Positions 49,583 through 59,927 of a stretch of DNA of 64,000 nt are shown here, one piece after another; position 1 is the first letter of the stretch, and each line of letters begins with the position of its first letter. The stretch is from positions 47,260 to 111,259 of the forward strand of contig JAWODC010000036.1 in the NCBI GenBank assembly GCA_046483495.1, written 5' to 3'. The position numbers were made by a program, and so were the translations under genes. The DNA comes from Desulfobacterales bacterium. GTDB lineage: Bacteria > Desulfobacterota > Desulfobacteria > Desulfobacterales > UBA5616. The notes under the pieces were generated by a model that worked only from the letters and a program-made list of their open reading frames with translations, was not told the DNA's origin and did not search any database.

Positions 49583-50674
49583 ATGGATGTGCACTTTTTA
49601 CCGAGATGCCGCAGTTCCCTGATCGGCAGCCTGCCGGTGGACAGCCATGAGACGGCAAACCGATGGGTATGGCAGTACAGTCCGGCGATTCCATTGTGGA
49701 TTCAACTGCCGGCCAACAGGGCGGAAGACATGATCCTTCAGTTTCTGCCGGGAATGCCGGGGCTGGTCAATGAAGACGGGCGCGTTTACGTCGATACGCA
49801 GGGAAAGGCTTTCGATGACGAATTGGTGGCGTTCTATGAAGAATACCTCTCCGTAACAGAGGAAAATGCCGATTTCGATACATCCAGGTTTGCCCTTTCG
49901 GCTGAATCCGCGCCCGGTTTTTATATCTTTCTCGAGTCGCTTGAAAAGAGAGCCCATCCGCCCGAAGCGGTCAAGGGTCAGGTCACAGGCCCCATAACCC
50001 TTTGCACCAGCGTCACGGACCAGGAAAAAACGGCCGTTTTTTATCATGATCAACTGCGGGACGCCGCCGTTAAACTGATAAGTTTAAAGGCGCGCTGGCA
50101 GGTCCGGCGGCTATCAGGCTTCGGTGTTCCGGTGATCCTGTTCATTGACGAACCGTCGCTTGCCGGATTTGGCTCCTCCGAATTTACCAGCATCTCCAAA
50201 GATCAGGTGAAGGCCTGTCTTGAAGAGGTCATCGATGCCGTCCATGCCGAAGGCGGACTTGCGGGTGTTCATGTGTGCGCCAATACCGATTGGTCCCTTA
50301 TATTGGAGACTTCTGTCGATATTGTAAATTTCGATGCGTACAGCTATTTTGACCGGTTTATCCTTTATTCGGACCCGATCAAACATTTTCTTCGAACCGG
50401 ACGGATACTGGCATGGGGAATCGTTCCAACATTTCCCGTTTCCAGTATGGAGACGGAATCGGCCCAATCACTATTGGCTAAATTAACCGAGCAGATGAAT
50501 GAAATTCAGGATCTCGGGATTGACCGATCCGGCGTATTGGCACAGTCGCTGATTACACCGAGCTGCGGCGCCGGATCATTGAACCCGGCGCAGGCCGTTA
50601 AAGTGCTCCAACTGACGCAGGCGGTGTCGGAGGTGATGCACCACACGGCAATTTCCGAACAGGAATCAGGTTGA
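49583..50674 (+). CDS. Core (folate-independent, MesB-like) methionine synthase
   Basis: Single MetE C-terminal-type barrel: IGSLP, WIQLP, KGQVTGP, IDEP, Zn ligands HVC and TPSCG. Confidence 0.78.
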   Translation: MDVHFLPRCRSSLIGSLPVDSHETANRWVWQYSPAIPLWIQLPANRAEDMILQFLPGMPGLVNEDGRVYVDTQGKAFDDELVAFYEEYLSVTEENADFDTSRFALSAESAPGFYIFLESLEKRAHPPEAVKGQVTGPITLCTSVTDQEKTAVFYHDQLRDAAVKLISLKARWQVRRLSGFGVPVILFIDEPSLAGFGSSEFTSISKDQVKACLEEVIDAVHAEGGLAGVHVCANTDWSLILETSVDIVNFDAYSYFDRFILYSDPIKHFLRTGRILAWGIVPTFPVSSMETESAQSLLAKLTEQMNEIQDLGIDRSGVLAQSLITPSCGAGSLNPAQAVKVLQLTQAVSEVMHHTAISEQESG

Positions 50675-50757
50675 ACGACATCGCGACGGAACCGAAGCGA
50701 GGATTGAAACCGCGCCTTAGCGCAATTTTCGAGAAATCAAGGAGAAGGGGTAGTATT

Positions 50758-51612
50758 ATGACAGATGGCGGATCATACTTTAAATTTGTCGGGGCGACAC
50801 GCTACGTATTGGATGAAGAGCTGGCAAAGATCGTAAACATCTCAATGGCACTTGAAATGCCGTTGCTTTTAAAGGGCGAACCCGGCACCGGAAAAACAAT
50901 GCTCGCCCATGCCATCGCTGAAAATTTACGAATGCCGTTAATTGTTTTAAACGTCAAGTCCAGCATGAAACTGGTGGAAACCCTTTATCAATACGATACC
51001 TTAACGCGACTGAATGACAGCCGTTTCGGCGATTCCATGCGAAATGTCAGCAACATCGAAGAATACATCAAAATGGGAAAAATCGGCCAAGCGTTTACAG
51101 CCGATGAAAGAACCGTTTTGCTGATCGATGAAATCGATAAGGCGGATACTGATTTTCAGGATGACATGCTGGATATTCTGGATCAGATGGAATTTGACAT
51201 CATTGAAATCGACAAGACGGTCAGGGCCAAGCACAGGCCCGTTTTCATCATCACCTCCAATGCCAAGAAAGATTTGTCGGATCCGTTTCTGGGACGCTGC
51301 AATTTTCATCACATCGCTTTCCCGGACGCGAAGATGATGCGCAAAATTTTGAAGGTTCATTTTCCGGAAATCGAAAATGAGTTGATGGAAAACACCATGT
51401 CGGTCTTTTACCAGCTCAGGGAACTGGATGCCATTGAAAAGAAGCCCGCAACCCGCGAATTGATCAACTGGATACGGGCTTTGAATGCCGATAAAGATTT
51501 TCAGCCTAAAAAGCTCTTAAAAGGCGATATTCCCTTTATGGGGGTCCTCTTCAAAAAGAGCCTGGATTACGAAAAAGCCGTCGGTATGGTTAATCGAAGG
51601 AAGGTGTACTAG
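50758..51612 (+). CDS. MoxR-family AAA+ ATPase
   Basis: LLLKGEPGTGKT, LLIDEIDKAD, ITSN, FLGRC, KKPATRELINW. Confidence 0.9.
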   Translation: MTDGGSYFKFVGATRYVLDEELAKIVNISMALEMPLLLKGEPGTGKTMLAHAIAENLRMPLIVLNVKSSMKLVETLYQYDTLTRLNDSRFGDSMRNVSNIEEYIKMGKIGQAFTADERTVLLIDEIDKADTDFQDDMLDILDQMEFDIIEIDKTVRAKHRPVFIITSNAKKDLSDPFLGRCNFHHIAFPDAKMMRKILKVHFPEIENELMENTMSVFYQLRELDAIEKKPATRELINWIRALNADKDFQPKKLLKGDIPFMGVLFKKSLDYEKAVGMVNRRKVY

Positions 51613-51702
51613 GCATCAGCGTTTTTATGGGTTTCGGGTTGCCGGGTATCGGTACACCGGAAACGCGATGATCCGGCAATTCCCGTATAGAGGAAGTCAG
51701 CC

Positions 51703-52896
51703 ATGTTTATCGATTTTTTTTACACCTTAAAGGATGTGGGTGTTCCCGTAAGTCCGACCTCCTTTTTGCGGCTTCACGAGGCTTTGAGCAAGGGCCTGGT
51801 AAGTTCCCTAAATGATTTCTACATTTCTTCCCGTACGATTCTGGTGAAAAGCGAGCGGTACTTCGATCTTTACGATCAGGTGTTTGCACACCATTTCCAT
51901 GGCATGGAGCTGCCGGATGCCGAATCTCTGGAGATAGACGCGCTTACCCGGGCTCTTCTGGATGAATGGCTGAAAAACCCGAAGGACCTTGCCGATGCCT
52001 TGGGAATCGACGAGTCCGAAATCGCCAAACTGAGTCCGCAAGAATTGGTCGAGTATTTCAAGGAGCGCTTGAAAGAGCAGACCGAGCGCCATGACGGCGG
52101 AAACAAATGGATCGGAACAGGAGGGACTTCTCCGGTGGGGCATTCCGGCCATCATCCGGAGGGCATGCGTGTGGGAGGATCGTCCCGGAACAAATCCGCC
52201 GTTAAAGTCGCTATGGAGAGGCGATACAAAGATTACTCATTAAGGGGGCCTCTGACGCAGGCCATGGTTGGTGAGGCCTTAAAGCGGCTGCGGAACATGG
52301 TTGCCGACGGTCCCGAAGATCAGGTGGATGTCGATGAGACCATTTACCAGACCATGAGAAACGGCGGTGAAATCGAGATTCTATTTAAAAAAGCGCTGAA
52401 AGACCGGTTGAAGGTGATTCTGGCTATCGACAACGGCGGATGGTCCATGGATCCCTATGTCCCGGTTGTTCAGACGCTGTTCGACTATGCACGGGACCAG
52501 TTCAAGGACATCAAAATGTATTTTTTCCACAATACCATATATGACAACATTTGGCGCGATCCGTCCCGCTATAAAAAACCGCAGAAGGTCGACGAATTCG
52601 TTCGTTTCGATCCTGAAACACGCCTGATTGTCGTCGGTGATGCCAGTATGGCGCCCTATGAATTGATGGCTTCCGACGGCTCGATTCACATCGAGGAGAG
52701 AAACAGGAAATCAAGCATTGAACGCCTGCGGTTTCTGGCCAATACATTCAAACATTCCGTATGGCTGAACCCCGTGCCGGCACGGGCATGGCATCATACG
52801 CGTACAATCATTGAAATCGCAAAAATTTTTCCGATGTTTGAATTGAGCATCGACGGTCTGGAAAAAGCCGTAAACCATCTGCGTTCCAAATCGTAA
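51703..52896 (+). CDS. VWA-domain (CoxE-like) partner of MoxR
   Basis: HDGGNKWIGTGGTSP, DNGGWSM, YFFHN, VGDASMAPYEL, WLNP. Confidence 0.87.
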   Translation: MFIDFFYTLKDVGVPVSPTSFLRLHEALSKGLVSSLNDFYISSRTILVKSERYFDLYDQVFAHHFHGMELPDAESLEIDALTRALLDEWLKNPKDLADALGIDESEIAKLSPQELVEYFKERLKEQTERHDGGNKWIGTGGTSPVGHSGHHPEGMRVGGSSRNKSAVKVAMERRYKDYSLRGPLTQAMVGEALKRLRNMVADGPEDQVDVDETIYQTMRNGGEIEILFKKALKDRLKVILAIDNGGWSMDPYVPVVQTLFDYARDQFKDIKMYFFHNTIYDNIWRDPSRYKKPQKVDEFVRFDPETRLIVVGDASMAPYELMASDGSIHIEERNRKSSIERLRFLANTFKHSVWLNPVPARAWHHTRTIIEIAKIFPMFELSIDGLEKAVNHLRSKS

Positions 52897-53739: not shown

Positions 53740-53808
53740 CTTCTCCTTTTTCCTGACGTTTACACACCATCAGAGGTGCTGTACCCTATCAGGTTTCGTT
53801 CGCTTTTC

Positions 53809-53878
53809 ATCGGTATCGGTATCGGGATCGGGATCGGTTTTTTTCTGTTGGATTTTCGATACCGATCCCGATACCGAT
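53809..53878. repeat. Inverted array of hexamer repeats
   Basis: (ATCGG[T/G])x5, spacer, then CGAT([A/C]CCGAT)x3. Confidence 0.75.
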
Positions 53879-54045
53879 TTGGAACTTCGGCAAGCAGGCA
53901 GACCGCCTTTTTTTATCGAACCATCATTAAACCGTCACGATGATCAAGATCAATAGAAAAGGGGCAAACATCCGGGATTTGACGATAATGATTCGGCGCT
54001 AAATATTACCTTGATTAGATTTTGGCACCTGTGTTATGGGGGACC

Positions 54046-54921
54046 ATGCTGTTAAATCCTTGTGATGGCACAACTTACGCTGAGTTACGAGCGCAGAAAT
54101 TTTTGTCGAAAAAGTGCCGGAAGAATGATCACCGGTTCTGCCCCCGTTGCCTTCAGCGGAAAAATTACCGGCTGAAGGACGGGCGCCGTCGATGCTCGCG
54201 GTGCAAATACACATTTCACGATTTCAGCGGAAGATGGATCAATGCAGGCCGAATCACATGTTCGCAGTGGCTGTCCTTGATACGGCTGTTCGAACAGGAG
54301 TTGCCGGCCAGGCAAGCTGCCGATAAAGTAGGCCTTTCCTATAATACGGTATATGGAGCGCTGAATACGCTGCGATATGCGATTTTAGCGCATGCGGAAG
54401 ATGCGCCGGCATATTTTTGCAGGAAAACGGGATACGTGAAATGCTGTTACGGCGGTAATCGAAGCTGTGATACCCGCAGATGTCTCATAGAGGACGTGCC
54501 CGTGTTCGGGATTCAGCATGTCGGCAACCAGGTGCAGGTCCGTTTGGTTCCCGATGTGACCCCCGGTAACCTGATCCGCTCGGAAGTGAAAAAAATTCGT
54601 CGGGGAAGCATTATCTATACGGACAGATATAAGGCATATGACGGGATGCTTTATTACGGCTACCATCATGCCCGTGTCATGTCCGATGACTGTTTCCCGG
54701 AAGATTACGTATTCATGAATCGCATAAATGGTTTCTGGACCTGGTCACGGGATCGCTTCGTCAAGTACTACGGCGTCTCTTCCATTAATTTCCCCTTATA
54801 TCTTAAGGAGCTGGAATTTCGGTACAACCACCGGGAGCAGGACATTTTCGAGATTCTTTCACAATACGTCTGCGACTTGATCCCGGATTTTAAAGAGGAA
54901 GAGTACTTGCAAAGCGCTTGA
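54046..54921 (+). CDS. IS1595/ISXO2-family transposase-derived protein with degenerate catalytic site
   Basis: CPRC..CSRC zinc ribbon, HTH (ARQAADKVGLSYNTV), VPVFGI, GSIIYTD, GFW, FPLYLKELEFRYNHR; intact reading frame. Confidence 0.85.
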   Translation: MLLNPCDGTTYAELRAQKFLSKKCRKNDHRFCPRCLQRKNYRLKDGRRRCSRCKYTFHDFSGRWINAGRITCSQWLSLIRLFEQELPARQAADKVGLSYNTVYGALNTLRYAILAHAEDAPAYFCRKTGYVKCCYGGNRSCDTRRCLIEDVPVFGIQHVGNQVQVRLVPDVTPGNLIRSEVKKIRRGSIIYTDRYKAYDGMLYYGYHHARVMSDDCFPEDYVFMNRINGFWTWSRDRFVKYYGVSSINFPLYLKELEFRYNHREQDIFEILSQYVCDLIPDFKEEEYLQSA

Positions 54922-54992
54922 CCCAATGAAGATTGGCGGCCGCTGGGGCATCCCGCCAAAAAAACGTGCACCACATTTCGTGGAGGTATTCA

Positions 54993-55823
54993 ATGTTTAC
55001 AATTGTCAGACGAGAAGAAATGGCCGAAGGGACGGTGATCCTCAATGAAATAGAGGCACCGCTGATCGCCGAAAAGGCAAAACCCGGCCAGTTTGTCATC
55101 CTGAAGGCCAATGAAACCGGAGAGCGCATCCCATTGACCATGGCGGATACAGACCCGGAAAAGGGTACGATTACTATCATTTATATGGTCGTGGGGAAAA
55201 CGACGGCGATTTTCAGAGATTTAAAAGAACAGGACGCTTATATGGATGTAATCGGCCCCCTGGGAAAACCCACCCATGTAGAAAAAGTCGGTAAGGTGGT
55301 ATGCGTGGGGGGCGGAACCGGTGTGGCGGTTCTTCATCCCATCACCCGGGCTCTCAAGGAAGTCGGTAACCACGTGATCTGCATTATCGGTGCGAGGACC
55401 AAAAACCTGCTGATACTGGAAGACCGGATGAGGGCTGCATCCAACGACCTTCGAATCTGCACGGATGACGGCTCATACGGCCACAAGGGGTTTGTTACGG
55501 AAGCGCTGAAGGAAGTCATGGAAGAAGGAGGTGTCCAACTGGTGGTGGCCATCGGTCCGGTGCCGATGATGAAATTCGTTTCGCAAATGACAAAGGAATA
55601 CGGCGTCAAAACCATCGTCAGCTTAAATCCCATTATGGTGGACGGTACGGGGATGTGCGGCGGCTGCCGTGTTACCGTCGGAGGGGAAACACGGTTCGCG
55701 TGCGTCGAGGGTCCGGAATTCGATGGGCATCAGGTGAATTATGACGAACTCATGAAACGGCTGCAGGCATACGCAGAAGATGAAAAGGCGAGTTATGACG
55801 AATATTGCCGCCGTTCAGGATAG
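54993..55823 (+). CDS. nfnA: Electron-bifurcating transhydrogenase small subunit (NfnA/SudB)
   Basis: AKPGQFVI, ERIPLT, GPLG, GGGTG, DDGSYG, MVDGTGMCGGCR, CVEGPEFD; GGAGG RBS. Confidence 0.9.
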   Translation: MFTIVRREEMAEGTVILNEIEAPLIAEKAKPGQFVILKANETGERIPLTMADTDPEKGTITIIYMVVGKTTAIFRDLKEQDAYMDVIGPLGKPTHVEKVGKVVCVGGGTGVAVLHPITRALKEVGNHVICIIGARTKNLLILEDRMRAASNDLRICTDDGSYGHKGFVTEALKEVMEEGGVQLVVAIGPVPMMKFVSQMTKEYGVKTIVSLNPIMVDGTGMCGGCRVTVGGETRFACVEGPEFDGHQVNYDELMKRLQAYAEDEKASYDEYCRRSG

Positions 55824-55911
55824 TCGGAAACCGGTCGGCGTATTTCATCGACAACCATACTAAAAATCAAATTCACTTGGATGGACATGATCCAACAATT
55901 CGGAGGCAACG

Positions 55912-57324
55912 ATGGCGCTAAATGGCGGCAAACAAGGGAAAACACCCAGGCAGAACATGCCGGAGCAAAAACCGGAAATTCGAAAACGCAATTTTGATGA
56001 AGTCCCCCTTGGCTTGAGCTCCGAGGCGGCGATGATAGAGGCTTCTCGATGCATTCAATGCAAGAATCCCGGGTGCGTAACCGGATGCCCGGTCGGTGTC
56101 GACATACCCGGGTTCATTGCAAGCATTAAGGAAGGGGATTTCAAGGGGGCTATTCAAACGGTTTGGAGCCGAAACAGCTTGCCGGCCGTTTGCGGCAGGG
56201 TCTGCCCGCAGGAGTCCCAATGTGAAGGCGTTTGTGTGTTGGGCAGAAAGGGAGACCCCGTGGCAATCGGTAATCTGGAGCGCTTTGCCGCGGATTATGA
56301 ACGGCTCAATGGCACCGGTGAACTTCCTTCAAAAGAAATACCAACAGGGAAAAAGGTGGCTGTCGTAGGTTCCGGTCCCGCCGGCCTGACGGTGGCCGGA
56401 GACCTGATTCTGAAGGGCCACGAGGTTACGCTGTACGAAGCCTTTCACAAACCCGGCGGCGTTCTGGTATACGGCATCCCTGAGTTTCGTCTTCCCAAGG
56501 ATATCGTTTTCAGTGAAGTGGGAACCTTGGAAAAGCTGGGGGTAAAACTGGAAAAGAACGCCGTTATCGGCAGAACGGTGAGTGTGGATGAGCTGTTCGA
56601 ACAGGGATTTGACGCCGTTTTTCTCGGAGTGGGTGCGGGACTTCCGCGATTTTTGAACATTCCCGGCGAAAATCTCATCGGAATCTTGTCGGCCAACGAA
56701 TATCTGACCCGGACGAACCTGATGAAGGGTTACCGGTTTCCGGAGTATGACACACCGGTTCCCATTGGAAAAAACGTGACGGTGTTCGGTGCAGGCAATG
56801 TTGCCATGGATTCCGCGAGAACGGCCATGCGTCTTGGCGCAGAACGGGTCCGCATCGTATACCGCCGTTCCCGCAATGAAATGCCGGCAAGAGCCGCGGA
56901 AATCCATCATGCCGAAGAGGAGGGAATCGAATTTTTTCTTCTTACCAGTCCCAAACGATTTCTCGGCGACGATTCCGGCAGGCTTCGGGGTGTGGAATGC
57001 CTGAAGATGGAATTGGGGGAACCGGATGAATCCGGCCGACGGAGGCCCGTTCCCGTTGAAGGGTCGGAGTTCGAACTGGAATGCGACCTTGCCGTCATTG
57101 CGGTAGGTGCGGGTGCCAATCCCCTGCTGACCCAATCCACCGAAGGATTGGCGTTGAACAAGCGGGGGTATATCGTGGCTGATACGGATACCGGCAAAAC
57201 CACCAAAAAAGGCGTATGGGCCGGAGGAGACATCGTTACGGGCTCTGCAACCGTCATTCTCGCCATGGGCGCCGGAAGGAAAGCCGCAGACTCCATACAC
57301 AAATATTTGACATGGGGATGGTGA
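55912..57324 (+). CDS. nfnB: Electron-bifurcating transhydrogenase large subunit (NfnB/SudA, GltD-like)
   Basis: RCIQCKNPGCVTGCP, CGRVCPQESQCE, GSGPAG, YGIPEFRL, GAGNVAMD, YRRS, GGDIVTG. Confidence 0.9.
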   Translation: MALNGGKQGKTPRQNMPEQKPEIRKRNFDEVPLGLSSEAAMIEASRCIQCKNPGCVTGCPVGVDIPGFIASIKEGDFKGAIQTVWSRNSLPAVCGRVCPQESQCEGVCVLGRKGDPVAIGNLERFAADYERLNGTGELPSKEIPTGKKVAVVGSGPAGLTVAGDLILKGHEVTLYEAFHKPGGVLVYGIPEFRLPKDIVFSEVGTLEKLGVKLEKNAVIGRTVSVDELFEQGFDAVFLGVGAGLPRFLNIPGENLIGILSANEYLTRTNLMKGYRFPEYDTPVPIGKNVTVFGAGNVAMDSARTAMRLGAERVRIVYRRSRNEMPARAAEIHHAEEEGIEFFLLTSPKRFLGDDSGRLRGVECLKMELGEPDESGRRRPVPVEGSEFELECDLAVIAVGAGANPLLTQSTEGLALNKRGYIVADTDTGKTTKKGVWAGGDIVTGSATVILAMGAGRKAADSIHKYLTWGW

Positions 57325-57776
57325 ACCCTCCTTCAAAGCACCTTCCGTGCCGTTTAAATGAACGGGGGATACACCAATTTTGTTATCGCCCGTTCATCGC
57401 CGTTTGCTAAAAAAAAGAGGGAACAAAACCCTTGACATCGGTGGGTTTGGTACGTATCCAATACAAAAAAGCGAAAAGAGGTTTCGATGCCTCTTGGCCT
57501 TTTTTCCTTCTTCACATCCATTCCATACCGTGTGTCGTATGGAAAACGCAGTGCCTTTATTTCGAAGCAGGTAATTCTCTGGTTCTAAAGGTAAGTAAGC
57601 CTTATATATGCATACGTGTGACGCATCACTGAACCCGATTATGTGTGTAATCCTGAAAAGGTGACAACCTCGAATTTCGGCATTTTGGCGCCGGCGAACG
57701 GCCCGACCGCCCCGCCCCTGATAAGTCCGAAAGTCGAATAATAAGCCAAGAACATCATATTCCAAAGGAGGCAAGG

Positions 57777-58787
57777 ATGAGTCTTTTCAAAACACGAATA
57801 ACAGAACTGTTCGGCATTGAATATCCCATTATCCAGGGGGGAATGGCCGCCGGAATCGTCAGTACGGGAGAATTGGCCGCCGCCGTTGCAAATGCCGGCG
57901 GAATCGGATTCATGTGCGCCATCCAGTGGGTGGACGACTTGAAAAAGCTCGAGGATGAAATCAAGAAAGTCAAAGACCTCACCGACAAGCCTTTCGGCAT
58001 CAATGTAACCCTGTTTACGGAAATCGGTCCGGAATGGTTCGAAAATGTTTTTGACATTATTGCAAAGTATGATGTGCCTGCGCTGGAAACATCGGCCAGA
58101 AGCCCGGAGCCATGGGTGCCGCGCATCAAGGAGATCGGCCTTCCCTGGATGCACAAAGTGGCCCGGATTCGGGACGGCATTAAAGCCGCAAAGCTGGGTG
58201 CCGACGCCCTGACGGTGATCGGCTCCGAAGAAGGCGGGCATCCGGGTGCGGAACGAAATGCCACCAGCGTTATCGGCCCTCTGTTGGTGGACTCCGTGGA
58301 TATCCCCGTGGCGATCGGCGGCGGCTTTTGCGACGGCCGGGGCCTGGTGGCCACCCTGGCCATGGGCGGCGAAGCCGTCTATATGGGAACCCGGTTCTGT
58401 GCCTCCGAGGAATGCGTCATTCATCCAAATGTAAAACAGTTGATTCTGGACACGGCGTACAATGAAACCGATTATCTCTTCATGTCCATCGGCGACCCGG
58501 TTAGGGCCATTCGCAATAAGCGGACCCAGAGCATTCTGGAAATCGAACGCACCGAAGGCAGCGAAGGCATTATGAAGTACATGGCTGAAAGCCGGAAAGA
58601 AGGGCATAGCTTCGGTGGCATGACCGCCATGAACACCGGTGACACCGAGGAGGGCATTCTGCCTCTGGGAATGGTGAGCGGCCGTATCAAGGAGATCAAG
58701 CCGGTCAAAGAAATCATGGCGGACATTGTCGATGAGGCAGAGGACGTTCTGAACAAACTGGCGGCGCGCAAGTACTGGAAATCTTAA
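57777..58787 (+). CDS. Nitronate monooxygenase / FabK-family flavoprotein
   Basis: YPIIQGGM, NAGGIG, TDKPFGIN, EEGGH, GGFCDGRG, MGTRF. Confidence 0.9.
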   Translation: MSLFKTRITELFGIEYPIIQGGMAAGIVSTGELAAAVANAGGIGFMCAIQWVDDLKKLEDEIKKVKDLTDKPFGINVTLFTEIGPEWFENVFDIIAKYDVPALETSARSPEPWVPRIKEIGLPWMHKVARIRDGIKAAKLGADALTVIGSEEGGHPGAERNATSVIGPLLVDSVDIPVAIGGGFCDGRGLVATLAMGGEAVYMGTRFCASEECVIHPNVKQLILDTAYNETDYLFMSIGDPVRAIRNKRTQSILEIERTEGSEGIMKYMAESRKEGHSFGGMTAMNTGDTEEGILPLGMVSGRIKEIKPVKEIMADIVDEAEDVLNKLAARKYWKS

Positions 58788-58790
58788 AAA

Positions 58791-58921
58791 TCGCCCTTTC
58801 AGAAACGGCTGATTCACTTCCTGCCCAACGCTTTGCCGACATATTTCTGCGTTGGTCGGAAATGTTAATCCTAAAATATTTTAACTGAAGCCAATTTTCT
58901 CATTTATGAAGATGGCTACTG
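58791..58921. repeat. Degenerate family A element (copy 3)
   Basis: TTCAGAAACGGCTGATTC...TTAATCCTAAAATA...AACTGAAGCCAATTTTCTCATTT matches segments of 34598-34743, with an internal insertion and deletion. Confidence 0.7.
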
Positions 58922-58943
58922 ATAAAAAAGGAGTTCATACAGG

Positions 58944-59927
58944 ATGAAAACGAGAATTACCGAAATGCTTGGGATTAAATACCCGATTCTCTGCGGCGGC
59001 ATGATGCGGCTGGCCTATCCTCCATTGTGCGCAGCCATTAGCAATGCAGGCGGCCTCGGGAATCTGACCGCCGCCATGTATTCGGGAAAAGAAGATCTTC
59101 GAACGGCCATTCAGGAGGTCCGAAAATTGACGGATAAGCCTTTCATGGTGAACGTTACCCTCCTTCCGGCCATTGCCGTGGGGCCCGAACAATATCGGGG
59201 ATATTTCGAGGCCTGTGCCGAAGAAAACGTCGCGGCCATGGAAATCGGCGGCACCCCCTTGAACCGGTTTGAAGACGGCAGATACCTGACGCTCCTGAAA
59301 GATGCCGGCGTCAAGTTGTTTCACAAAGTCGGCGCGGTAAAGCACGGCAAGAGCGTGGCCAGGGCCGGGTATGACGGCGTGATCGCCGCGGGAGTAGAGG
59401 AAGGCGGCCATCCCTTAAACGAAAACGTCGCCACGACCGTCCTGACCCCCCGTATGGTCGAGGAAATCGAAATTCCGGTGGTTACCGCAGGCGGCATGGC
59501 CAATGGAAAAAGTCTTGCCGCTGCCTTGTGTTTAGGTGCGGAAGGCATTCTGATGGCTACACGGTTTATTAACACCTATGAGTGCCGGGTCCATGAAAAG
59601 GTGCATCAGGTGCTGATCGATCGGCAGGAGAATGAAACCGTTCTGTACGGAAATTCCATCGGGCTTCAGGGCCGCGCGCTGGTCAACGATTCCATTCGAA
59701 AGGTTATGGAAATCGAAGCGCGGGGCGGCAGCCTGGAAGAAATAATTCCCCATCTTTCCGGCCAATACGGCGATGCCATCTGGCAGGAGGGCAAGATGGA
59801 TACGGGCCTCATTCCCGTGGGCCAGTCCATGGGATTAATTCACGATGTCTTAACCTGCAAAGAATTGCTGGACGGCATGGTTCAAGAGGCCGAGGACATA
59901 CTCAATCGGGTACGGGCGAAATTCTGA
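58944..59927 (+). CDS. Nitronate monooxygenase / FabK-family flavoprotein (tandem paralog)
   Basis: YPILCGGM, SNAGGLG, TDKPF, EEGGH, AGGMANG, MATRF. Confidence 0.9.
   Translation: MKTRITEMLGIKYPILCGGMMRLAYPPLCAAISNAGGLGNLTAAMYSGKEDLRTAIQEVRKLTDKPFMVNVTLLPAIAVGPEQYRGYFEACAEENVAAMEIGGTPLNRFEDGRYLTLLKDAGVKLFHKVGAVKHGKSVARAGYDGVIAAGVEEGGHPLNENVATTVLTPRMVEEIEIPVVTAGGMANGKSLAAALCLGAEGILMATRFINTYECRVHEKVHQVLIDRQENETVLYGNSIGLQGRALVNDSIRKVMEIEARGGSLEEIIPHLSGQYGDAIWQEGKMDTGLIPVGQSMGLIHDVLTCKELLDGMVQEAEDILNRVRAKF

Follow-up and report, generated by a model that had tools for sequence, protein, structure and literature searches.

A catalytically dead, immobilised IS1595 descendant at the head of nfnAB in a Desulfobacterales bacterium and its possible role as a DNA-binding regulator

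Introduction

What does a gene of transposase origin do at the head of an operon for a redox enzyme? This question is raised by a 64,000-nucleotide stretch of contig JAWODC010000036.1 from a Desulfobacterales bacterium (assembly GCA_046483495.1), referred to here as the window, in which an open reading frame (ORF) derived from a transposase of the insertion sequence (IS) family IS1595 precedes nfnA and nfnB on the same strand. NfnAB is the NADH-dependent ferredoxin:NADP+ oxidoreductase, an electron-bifurcating enzyme. The first-pass annotation of this DNA proposed that the transposase has been domesticated, that a cluster of cysteines replaces its first catalytic motif, and that the protein controls nfnAB. 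The analysis leads, with moderate confidence, to the reading that the gene is a dead, immobilised, single-copy descendant of an IS1595 element and that its product would be a DNA-binding regulator or autoregulator, which acts on the left IS end retained at its own promoter.

Five-cysteine patch at the former active site

The IS1595-derived gene (54046..54921, + strand) is an intact ORF for 291 amino acid residues, with GTG 54031 and TTG 54022 as alternative in-frame starts. The zinc ribbon, the helix-turn-helix (HTH) and the C-terminal LYLKELEFRYN, which were recognised in it at the first pass, are confirmed by the ORF and by matches to PF12760, HTH_23 and PF12762. The zinc ribbon (residues 16-56, 54091..54213, +) scores 24.8 bits against PF12760, as compared with a cutoff of 25.4 bits; its residues C24, C32, C35, C50 and C53 are invariant in the alignment columns, and the related proteins P0002, P0009, P0011 and P0013, which share the cysteine patch described below, score 33-34 bits. 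An N-terminal IS1595 zinc ribbon is present in the window protein, as judged from these profile matches. The homeodomain-like HTH follows at residues ~60-116 (54223..54393, +; HTH_23 at residues 76-107, E 9.8e-4), and the AF2 model contains helices at residues 72-83, 88-95 and 99-115 of this region with a predicted local distance difference test (pLDDT) score of 87-91. The rest of the transposase core (residues 150-261, 54493..54828, +) matches only profile positions 37-153 of PF12762, with 51 bits, while relatives with an intact Asp-Asp-Glu (DDE) triad match positions 2-153 with 122-133 bits. D193 is kept in this core, Asn228 stands for the catalytic Glu, and K240 and LYLKELEFRYN (residues 251-261) are present. 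The whole protein scores 73.3 bits against NF033547, the NCBIfam model of IS1595, the cutoff of which is 75. The mean pLDDT of the AF2 model is 70, and the core and the patch are modelled poorly. In the VIA-align wide search the HTH alone is matched, to homeodomain, Myb and transposase DNA-binding domains at a weak Z of ~5, and no RNase-H-like match is obtained, which is uninformative on the fold. Foldseek against the PDB gives no match with E below 0.42, and a sequence-profile search of the PDB gives spurious antibody matches only and no solved relative.

The five-Cys patch (residues 125-146, 54418..54483, +) is defined by alignment A6, which consists of 14 members of the clade that carries it (the Cys clade) and 24 DDE relatives (the DDE group). 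What it replaces is the strand and hairpin of the former active site, which bore the first catalytic Asp, and with them the motif around that residue and the Gly/Arg loop. GYVKCCYGG, which sits within CRKTGYVKCCYGGNRSCDTRRC, and NRINGFW are found in the sequence and in the alignment as had been described. The five cysteines (C125, C133, C134, C141 and C146), spaced as C-x7-CC-x6-C-x4-C, are invariant in 14/14 clade members; the corresponding residues of the DDE group are G/S/D, S/A/C, Y, G and G. Val131 takes the place of the first catalytic Asp, and Lys132 that of the next Glu, in all 14 members. The third catalytic Glu is replaced by Asn228 in the window protein and is retained in one of the 14 members, while D193 is retained in 13 and K240 in all. 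According to this alignment, two of the three catalytic residues are lost from the window protein. The comparison with IS1595 relatives, which was suggested at the first pass as a check, thus comes out in favour of both conserved cysteines and lost DDE residues.

A search of 5.8 billion clustered proteins gives 1376 matches. The patch is common to the nearest 12 clusters (58-79% identity), and below 55% identity stands a large group of ~283-residue proteins with the intact motif GEIELDExYFGGRRKGNRGRGAAGKVPVFG...NGLEGFW. A word search with residues 112-160 finds the same clade and two fragment clusters, and no others. The identity between the Cys clade and the DDE group is 62% in the zinc ribbon and HTH, 57% at the C-terminus, 33% in the core and 13% in the patch, and the identity of the patch within the clade is 76%. 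Besides the five cysteines, ~100 further columns are invariant across 13-14 members down to 58% identity. By these figures the conservation of the patch exceeds chance, and the invariance of the five cysteines argues for a role as ligands, predicted to be of Zn or an Fe-S cluster.

A metagenome scan with Cys-patch patterns gives 61 pattern matches, none of which is confirmed. A second metagenome scan with the whole alignment gives 80 loci, all at <=55% identity and DDE-intact where readable, and no further genomic contexts of the Cys clade; these scans recover none of the other 10 metagenomic clade members. Loci L051, L058 and L065 were considered as relatives within the Cys clade and rejected as fragments of the DDE group. 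One of them, L051:160-795, is a DDE-group copy with an internally deleted catalytic core, in which residues 1-120 and 222-283 are retained.

Parent IS and its retained left end

The active sister IS is defined by the alignment of three copies of one complete genome (L025, L026 and L029); a generic inverted-repeat search around each ORF finds almost nothing. This element occurs in several copies per genome, extends from ~42 nt before the ATG to 6 nt after the stop codon, and is ~0.9 kb long with inverted ends of ~23 bp. Its left end reads GGTAATTGAT..GTTYTGGCAC at dozens of loci, and its right end, the reverse complement of the left, extends over the last codons and the stop codon. A/T-rich target duplications of 8 bp flank the element at L088, L120 and L125, as identified by eye. 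In sister IS copies (L004-L149, for example L025:5958-6816), an inverted repeat GGCACC..GGTGCC lies just 5' of the ATG. It co-varies by eye to GACACC..GGTGTC in other copies, a pattern suggestive of a conserved hairpin that covers the ribosome-binding site. In the Cys clade, the 3' arm of this repeat is missing.

The window retains the inner part of the left end at 54010..54045 (+), where CTTGATTAGATTTTGGCAC, then CTGTGTTATGGGGGACC, aligns with GGTAATTGATTAAGTTTTGGCAC, then CTGTGTTAAGGG, of the sister IS. The window and the two other loci with the gene, L002 and L003, share CTTGATYARATTTTGGCAC followed by YTRTGYTATGGG, which corresponds to the inner part of the left end of the active IS and to its leader. 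In all three, other sequence stands in place of the outer GGTAA, the TGGCAC of the right end has been lost, and the frame continues 8-13 codons beyond the old stop. Neither a right inverted repeat nor a target duplication is present at the window locus, so that the end alignment agrees with the earlier failure to find matched terminal repeats or a duplication there. The accompanying suggestion of a retained IS end upstream of the gene holds for 54010-54045, which is homologous to the left end, and does not hold for the GGCGCTAAATATT part. The inner left end is conserved in all four genomes of the family in which it can be compared, namely those of the window, L002 and L003 and that of a deletion remnant in genome G005, and thus both behind a different upstream gene (L003) and where the gene itself is deleted (G005). 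The remaining intergenic DNA is unalignable among these four. No second left-end site is found in the 4.19-Mb genome within 3 mismatches of the 23-mer, and an 18-mer of the left end gives 11 genome matches at 3 mismatches, a chance-like number.

The descent of the Cys clade is examined by a FastTree tree of 61 proteins, the rows of which were picked by the authors from the loci and matches, and in which long-branch effects among dead lineages are likely. The 15 Cys-clade sequences are monophyletic, with a Shimodaira-Hasegawa (SH)-like support of 1.0 and a stem of 0.54, and are nested in a group with 0.977 support that includes 11 DDE-intact IS copies. According to this tree, the Cys clade derives from within the active IS1595-type group.

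Immobility and purifying selection

In its own genome (G000; 4.19 Mb, 96.7% complete), the window protein is matched once, and genomes G001 and G004 have one match each. The clusters of the Cys clade contain 1-2 member sequences each, some on contigs of up to 661 kb, and the clusters of the DDE group contain up to 338 members, many on contigs of ~1 kb, and are repeat-like. The nonsynonymous (pN) and synonymous (pS) divergences between the window gene and that at L002 (same genus) are 0.116 and 0.685, and those between the window gene and that at L003 (another genus) are 0.230 and 0.737. The pN/pS ratio is therefore 0.17-0.31, and the synonymous sites are saturated, so that dS values are unreliable. 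The amino-acid rate of the gene is ~2x that of nfnA and nfnB (pN 0.05-0.10). The gene is under purifying selection, as judged from these ratios. The copy count and the selection estimate, both of which had been proposed as checks, thus reveal no extra copies in the genome and a constrained protein.

With the full DDE domain, the D-D-E residues, both ends with their duplication, and mobility all lacking, the window gene is not, as far as its sequence tells, a functional IS1595 element. The domestication of the transposase proposed at the first pass is well supported by the single copy, the loss of catalytic residues, the loss of the right end, and purifying selection.

Distribution of the gene and its position upstream of nfnAB

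In a collection of species-representative genomes, the patch is found at only L002 and L003 among 68 related loci. In the family of the window genome, the gene is found in three of the six genomes, and the non-carriers are 75%, 84% and 98% complete. In the order sample, 13 of 401 genomes have any match at E <= 1e-20, and the Cys form is found in only the same three. The carriers are thus three genomes of two genera; together with a third genus, in which a deletion remnant is found, they belong to one family of bacteria labelled Desulfobacteraceae. The order gene-nfnA-nfnB-nitronate monooxygenase (NMO) on one strand is found in 3/3 carrier genomes, with a gap of 46-71 nt to nfnA. The upstream AAA-VWA-tatD genes are common to L002 and the window, and L003 has an ABC-2 permease gene instead.

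The remnant is found in G005 (98% complete, 6% contaminated), in which AAA-VWA-tatD is followed by a 225-nt spacer and nfnA-nfnB. In the spacer (L180:3382-3606), the left-end block is followed by the start of the gene, 11 codons identical to the start of P0011, and the match then breaks off ~100 nt before nfnA. This remnant indicates that the gene was present in the family ancestor and was deleted in G005, where transcription of nfnAB probably comes from the old IS leader. Absence from this locus in a close relative, which the first-pass annotation named as a sign against domestication, is therefore found in G005, but it results from a secondary deletion, after which the IS end and 11 codons remain. 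The contig of G002 ends 143 nt past the nfnB start (minus strand), and is therefore uninformative on the presence of the gene.

nfnAB genes, promoter and RNA-library contigs

The IS1595-derived ORF ends at 54921 and nfnA starts with ATG 54993, with GGAGGT ahead of it. The 71-nt gap between them (54922..54992, +) contains no terminator-like site in the terminator scan and folds no better than its shuffles (z 0.86), which bears out the first-pass remark on a 71-bp, same-strand gap with no obvious terminator. nfnA (54993..55823, +) encodes a small subunit of the FAD/NAD and 2Fe-2S type (NF004862, 410 bits), and nfnB (55912..57324, +) a GltD-like large subunit (TIGR01316, 607 bits). Both match solved enzymes over the full length, NfnA with 5jca_S (E 1e-98) and 4ylf_A (E 1.4e-86) and NfnB with 4ylf_B (E 6.6e-177) and 5jca_L (E 2.7e-160). 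On the strength of these matches the two genes encode NfnA and NfnB, the adjacent subunits of an enzyme with predicted activity. A hairpin with a T run, identified by the terminator scan 3' of nfnB (57476..57505, +), is the likely end of the operon.

A sigma-70-like promoter match, TTGACG-17-AATATT (53979..54007, +; 9/12 matches), ends just before the retained IS end. The promoter scan gives 6 sites, as compared with 5.1 expected, so that this match alone is not significant. An A/T-rich -10-like hexamer is seen by eye at the same place in L002, L003 and G005. A sigma-54 promoter at TGGCAC (54023-54028) was also considered and rejected. The sigma-54 consensus has GG at -24 and GC at -12 at the standard spacing, while the -12 position reads TTAT or CTAT in 4/4 genomes and G005 has GA at -24; the occurrence of TGGCAC in the right end of the active IS also counts against this candidate.

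Contigs identical to the window are found in four salt-lake metatranscriptome runs of two studies. They cover 54732-54968 (X2), 54750-54957 (X3) and 54895-55109 (X4), the last of which contains the last 27 nt of the gene, the entire gap and 117 nt of nfnA. Further RNA-library contigs contain pieces of nfnA and nfnB. The bins 54002-54671 of the gene are covered by no RNA-library contig, which is not evidence of silence.

The genes around the operon include a pair for a MoxR-like AAA ATPase and a VWA/CoxE-like protein upstream (50671-52896) and two nitronate-monooxygenase-like paralogues downstream (57777-59927), and the position of both pairs is kept in relatives. The spacer at the tatD gene contains an 80-nt palindromic element (53806-53885), with GGTATC/GGGATC repeats around a T-rich loop, which is absent from the same place in L002 and has related copies on at least 15 other contigs of the genome. 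RNA-library contigs match this element with loose ends on both sides, indicating that it also occurs in other contexts. It looks like a repetitive extragenic palindromic (REP)- or miniature inverted-repeat transposable element (MITE)-like repeat. An Rfam scan gives no relevant match.

Other dead relatives of IS1595 transposases

Other relatives, at 34-43% identity, have lost the catalytic motifs and kept the N-terminus and FPLYLKELEFRYN. A profile search of 1.84 billion representatives gives 3684 matches at E <= 0.001, of which the 150 best were examined. When the P0122 sequence of the Cys clade itself and, of the remaining 149, 46 sequences shorter than 240 residues are excluded, 103 full-length representatives of 50%-identity clusters are left. 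Among these nearest listed representatives, D-D-E is kept at the aligned positions in 15/103 and is not kept in 88/103, a count that needs careful realignment before it is trusted, since fixed-length mafft --add can misplace residues, the query profile is without the triad, and active copies collapse into few clusters.

A further dead lineage of IS1595-like proteins, which share 34-41% identity with the window protein, is encoded directly upstream of a selenocysteine (Sec)-type fdhA, with an in-frame TGA, and fdhB at 6/6 loci with downstream DNA (L038, L042, L049, L053, L186 and L189). The genomes of this lineage are labelled Desulfovibrionales, Desulfonatronum or Desulfovibrionaceae, and in L038, L042 and L044 the upstream genes include moaA and one for a thioredoxin-like protein. 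Another dead relative, L052:3430-4359, stands directly after hcp, the hybrid-cluster protein gene. It shares with P0160, P0167, P0192, P0195, P0204, P0217, P0243, P0256 and P0262 a different set of conserved cysteines, with an FxCC motif and Cys in the replaced hairpin. The phylum-level sample of 401 genomes, searched for this second Cys-bearing lineage (A7), yields only DDE-intact or fdh-type relatives. Decayed relatives also precede a TolC-ABC-HlyD export set (L030 and L034), genes for a histidine kinase and a response regulator (L037), and sugar-modifying genes (L046).

Proposed function and alternative explanations

The zinc ribbon and HTH of the window protein probably still recognise the old end sequence at 54010-54045. 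A local regulator or autoregulator is the simplest reading, because the part with which transposases recognise their ends is kept and a matching end is kept immediately upstream of the gene. This site is located at or just after the likely transcription start, so that its occupancy would set the transcription of gene-nfnA-nfnB. The five-Cys patch in the former active-site hairpin may bind a metal, either Zn or an Fe-S cluster, and DNA binding would then depend on metal or redox state. We infer both the regulator role and the binding of a metal or Fe-S cluster from the sequence comparisons described above.

Several results weigh against this reading. The expected synteny with nfnAB is found in 3/3 carriers, but it counts as a single event, because the context is known only for genomes of one family; the link to nfnAB is one historical insertion carried by descent, not a repeated association. 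G005 keeps nfnAB behind the same upstream block without the gene, indicating that the protein is dispensable to nfnAB. The putative promoter is a weak match with a non-conserved -35. DNA may be present among the RNA-library contigs, and a contig over the junction of two genes is no proof of one transcript. The 49-residue patch matches no Pfam family at E <= 10, with no homology to a known sensor family, and residues 136-146 of it are modelled with a pLDDT below 50.

A further-reaching version of the proposal is possible but doubtful. In this version, the protein would be a transposase-born, redox- or metal-sensing transcription factor, in which the DDE pocket has been converted to a site for Fe-S or Zn and the former IS end to an operator, and which tunes the electron-bifurcating NfnAB. 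It would form one branch of a large radiation, so far undescribed, in which dead IS1595 derivatives stand at the head of operons for redox enzymes in Desulfobacterota, namely nfnAB here and Sec-fdhAB and hcp in other lineages.

Among the alternatives, an unlikely one is that the protein is a transposition inhibitor or immunity protein, which binds the ends of related active IS and blocks incoming copies, like truncated or dead transposase repressors, and that its position at nfnAB is accidental. The end-binding N-terminus is 62% identical to that of active copies with catalysis gone, and no active sister copy is found in the three carriers G000, G001 and G004, which have only the one match each, while active copies exist in other families of the order (G008 and G063). 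However, G005, which lost the gene, is likewise without an active copy at E <= 1e-20, and immunity would require neither the left end nor the operon position to be conserved across genera and would leave the invariant new Cys patch unexplained.

It is also improbable, slightly more so, that the protein is a partner or maturation factor of NfnAB, a Cys-rich protein that binds a metal or cluster and acts on or with the enzyme instead of regulating its genes. The co-orientation and tight spacing with nfnAB and the five invariant cysteines are consistent with such a role, as is the position of the other dead lineage directly before Sec-fdhA and beside moaA at all six loci with downstream DNA. On the other hand, conservation is highest in the zinc ribbon, the HTH and the cognate DNA end, the solved NfnAB enzymes of other organisms (4ylf and 5jca) consist of two subunits, and nfnAB is retained without the gene in G005.

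There is only a small chance that the protein is functionless, in the sense that the insertion is kept since its left end is the nfnAB promoter, and that the frame is open merely to avoid polarity. The deletion in G005, which removed the coding part and kept the left end before nfnA, is as this explanation would have it. However, the pN/pS of 0.17-0.31, the invariance of the five cysteines and ~100 other columns, and the 76% conservation of the patch argue against it, because selection for an open frame alone would not yield such patterns. That the gene is a still-mobile IS, through other residues or by mobilisation in trans, is hardly credible, because the retention of D193, K240 and the left-end core is outweighed by the single copy, the missing right end and target duplication, the orthologous position in three genomes despite saturated synonymous divergence, and clusters of 1-2 members on contigs of up to 661 kb, as compared with up to 338 members and ~1-kb contigs for the DDE clusters.

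The locus provides a directly testable model with one protein, one 36-nt site and one operon. The whole path of domestication is visible in the sequence, since the active parent IS with its ends still exists in related genomes, one cognate end is kept and the other lost, catalysis has been lost, and an invariant Cys motif is gained exactly at the former active site. If it is true that the patch binds an Fe-S cluster, the protein would represent a new sensor architecture that controls the NAD(P)H/ferredoxin balance. The IS1595 relatives without the triad would extend this pattern beyond the Cys clade.

Comparison with known systems

The sister active IS1595 elements of the DDE(K) type (for example L004, L010 and L025) resemble the window gene in the zinc ribbon, the HTH and the FPLYLKELEFRYN C-terminus (57-62% identity) and have a left-end core, TTGAT..TTTTGGCAC, that is homologous to that of the window. 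They differ from it in that they are complete ~0.9-kb elements with ~23-bp inverted ends (GGTAATTGAT..TGGCAC), a right end over the stop codon and 8-bp duplications, while the window gene is without the outer GGTAA, the entire right end, two of the three catalytic residues and a second copy.

Regulators that sense metals or Fe-S clusters through Cys ligands are known as the FNR, IscR, WhiB and SoxR types. The window protein resembles them in the combination of an invariant Cys cluster with a DNA-binding domain, and its gene lies beside a redox enzyme operon. Unlike them, it has a different Cys spacing and only predicted metal binding, and it has no sequence relation to any of these types.

Transposase-derived DNA-binding proteins, or domesticated transposases, are well known in eukaryotes, and dead repressors derived from TnpB occur in bacteria; to our knowledge, few cases are documented in bacteria in which a DDE transposase has become a DNA-binding protein of the host. 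The available portions of the literature on IS1595/Merlin domestication describe ciliate, plant and other eukaryotic cases only and mention no tamed IS1595 gene of a bacterium, and no transposase-derived regulator of nfnAB appears in the portions available on that subject. The window gene resembles domesticated transposases in that catalysis is lost, the DNA-binding domain is kept, and inheritance is vertical, as a single copy under purifying selection, and, like them, it has a remnant of its own end as a possible operator. To judge from the sequences compared here, the Cys-rebuilt active site is new and the anatomy of this case is unusually complete. The window gene differs from the known domesticated transposases in that it is bacterial and of the DDE type, and in that its active-site hairpin is rebuilt to a five-Cys motif.

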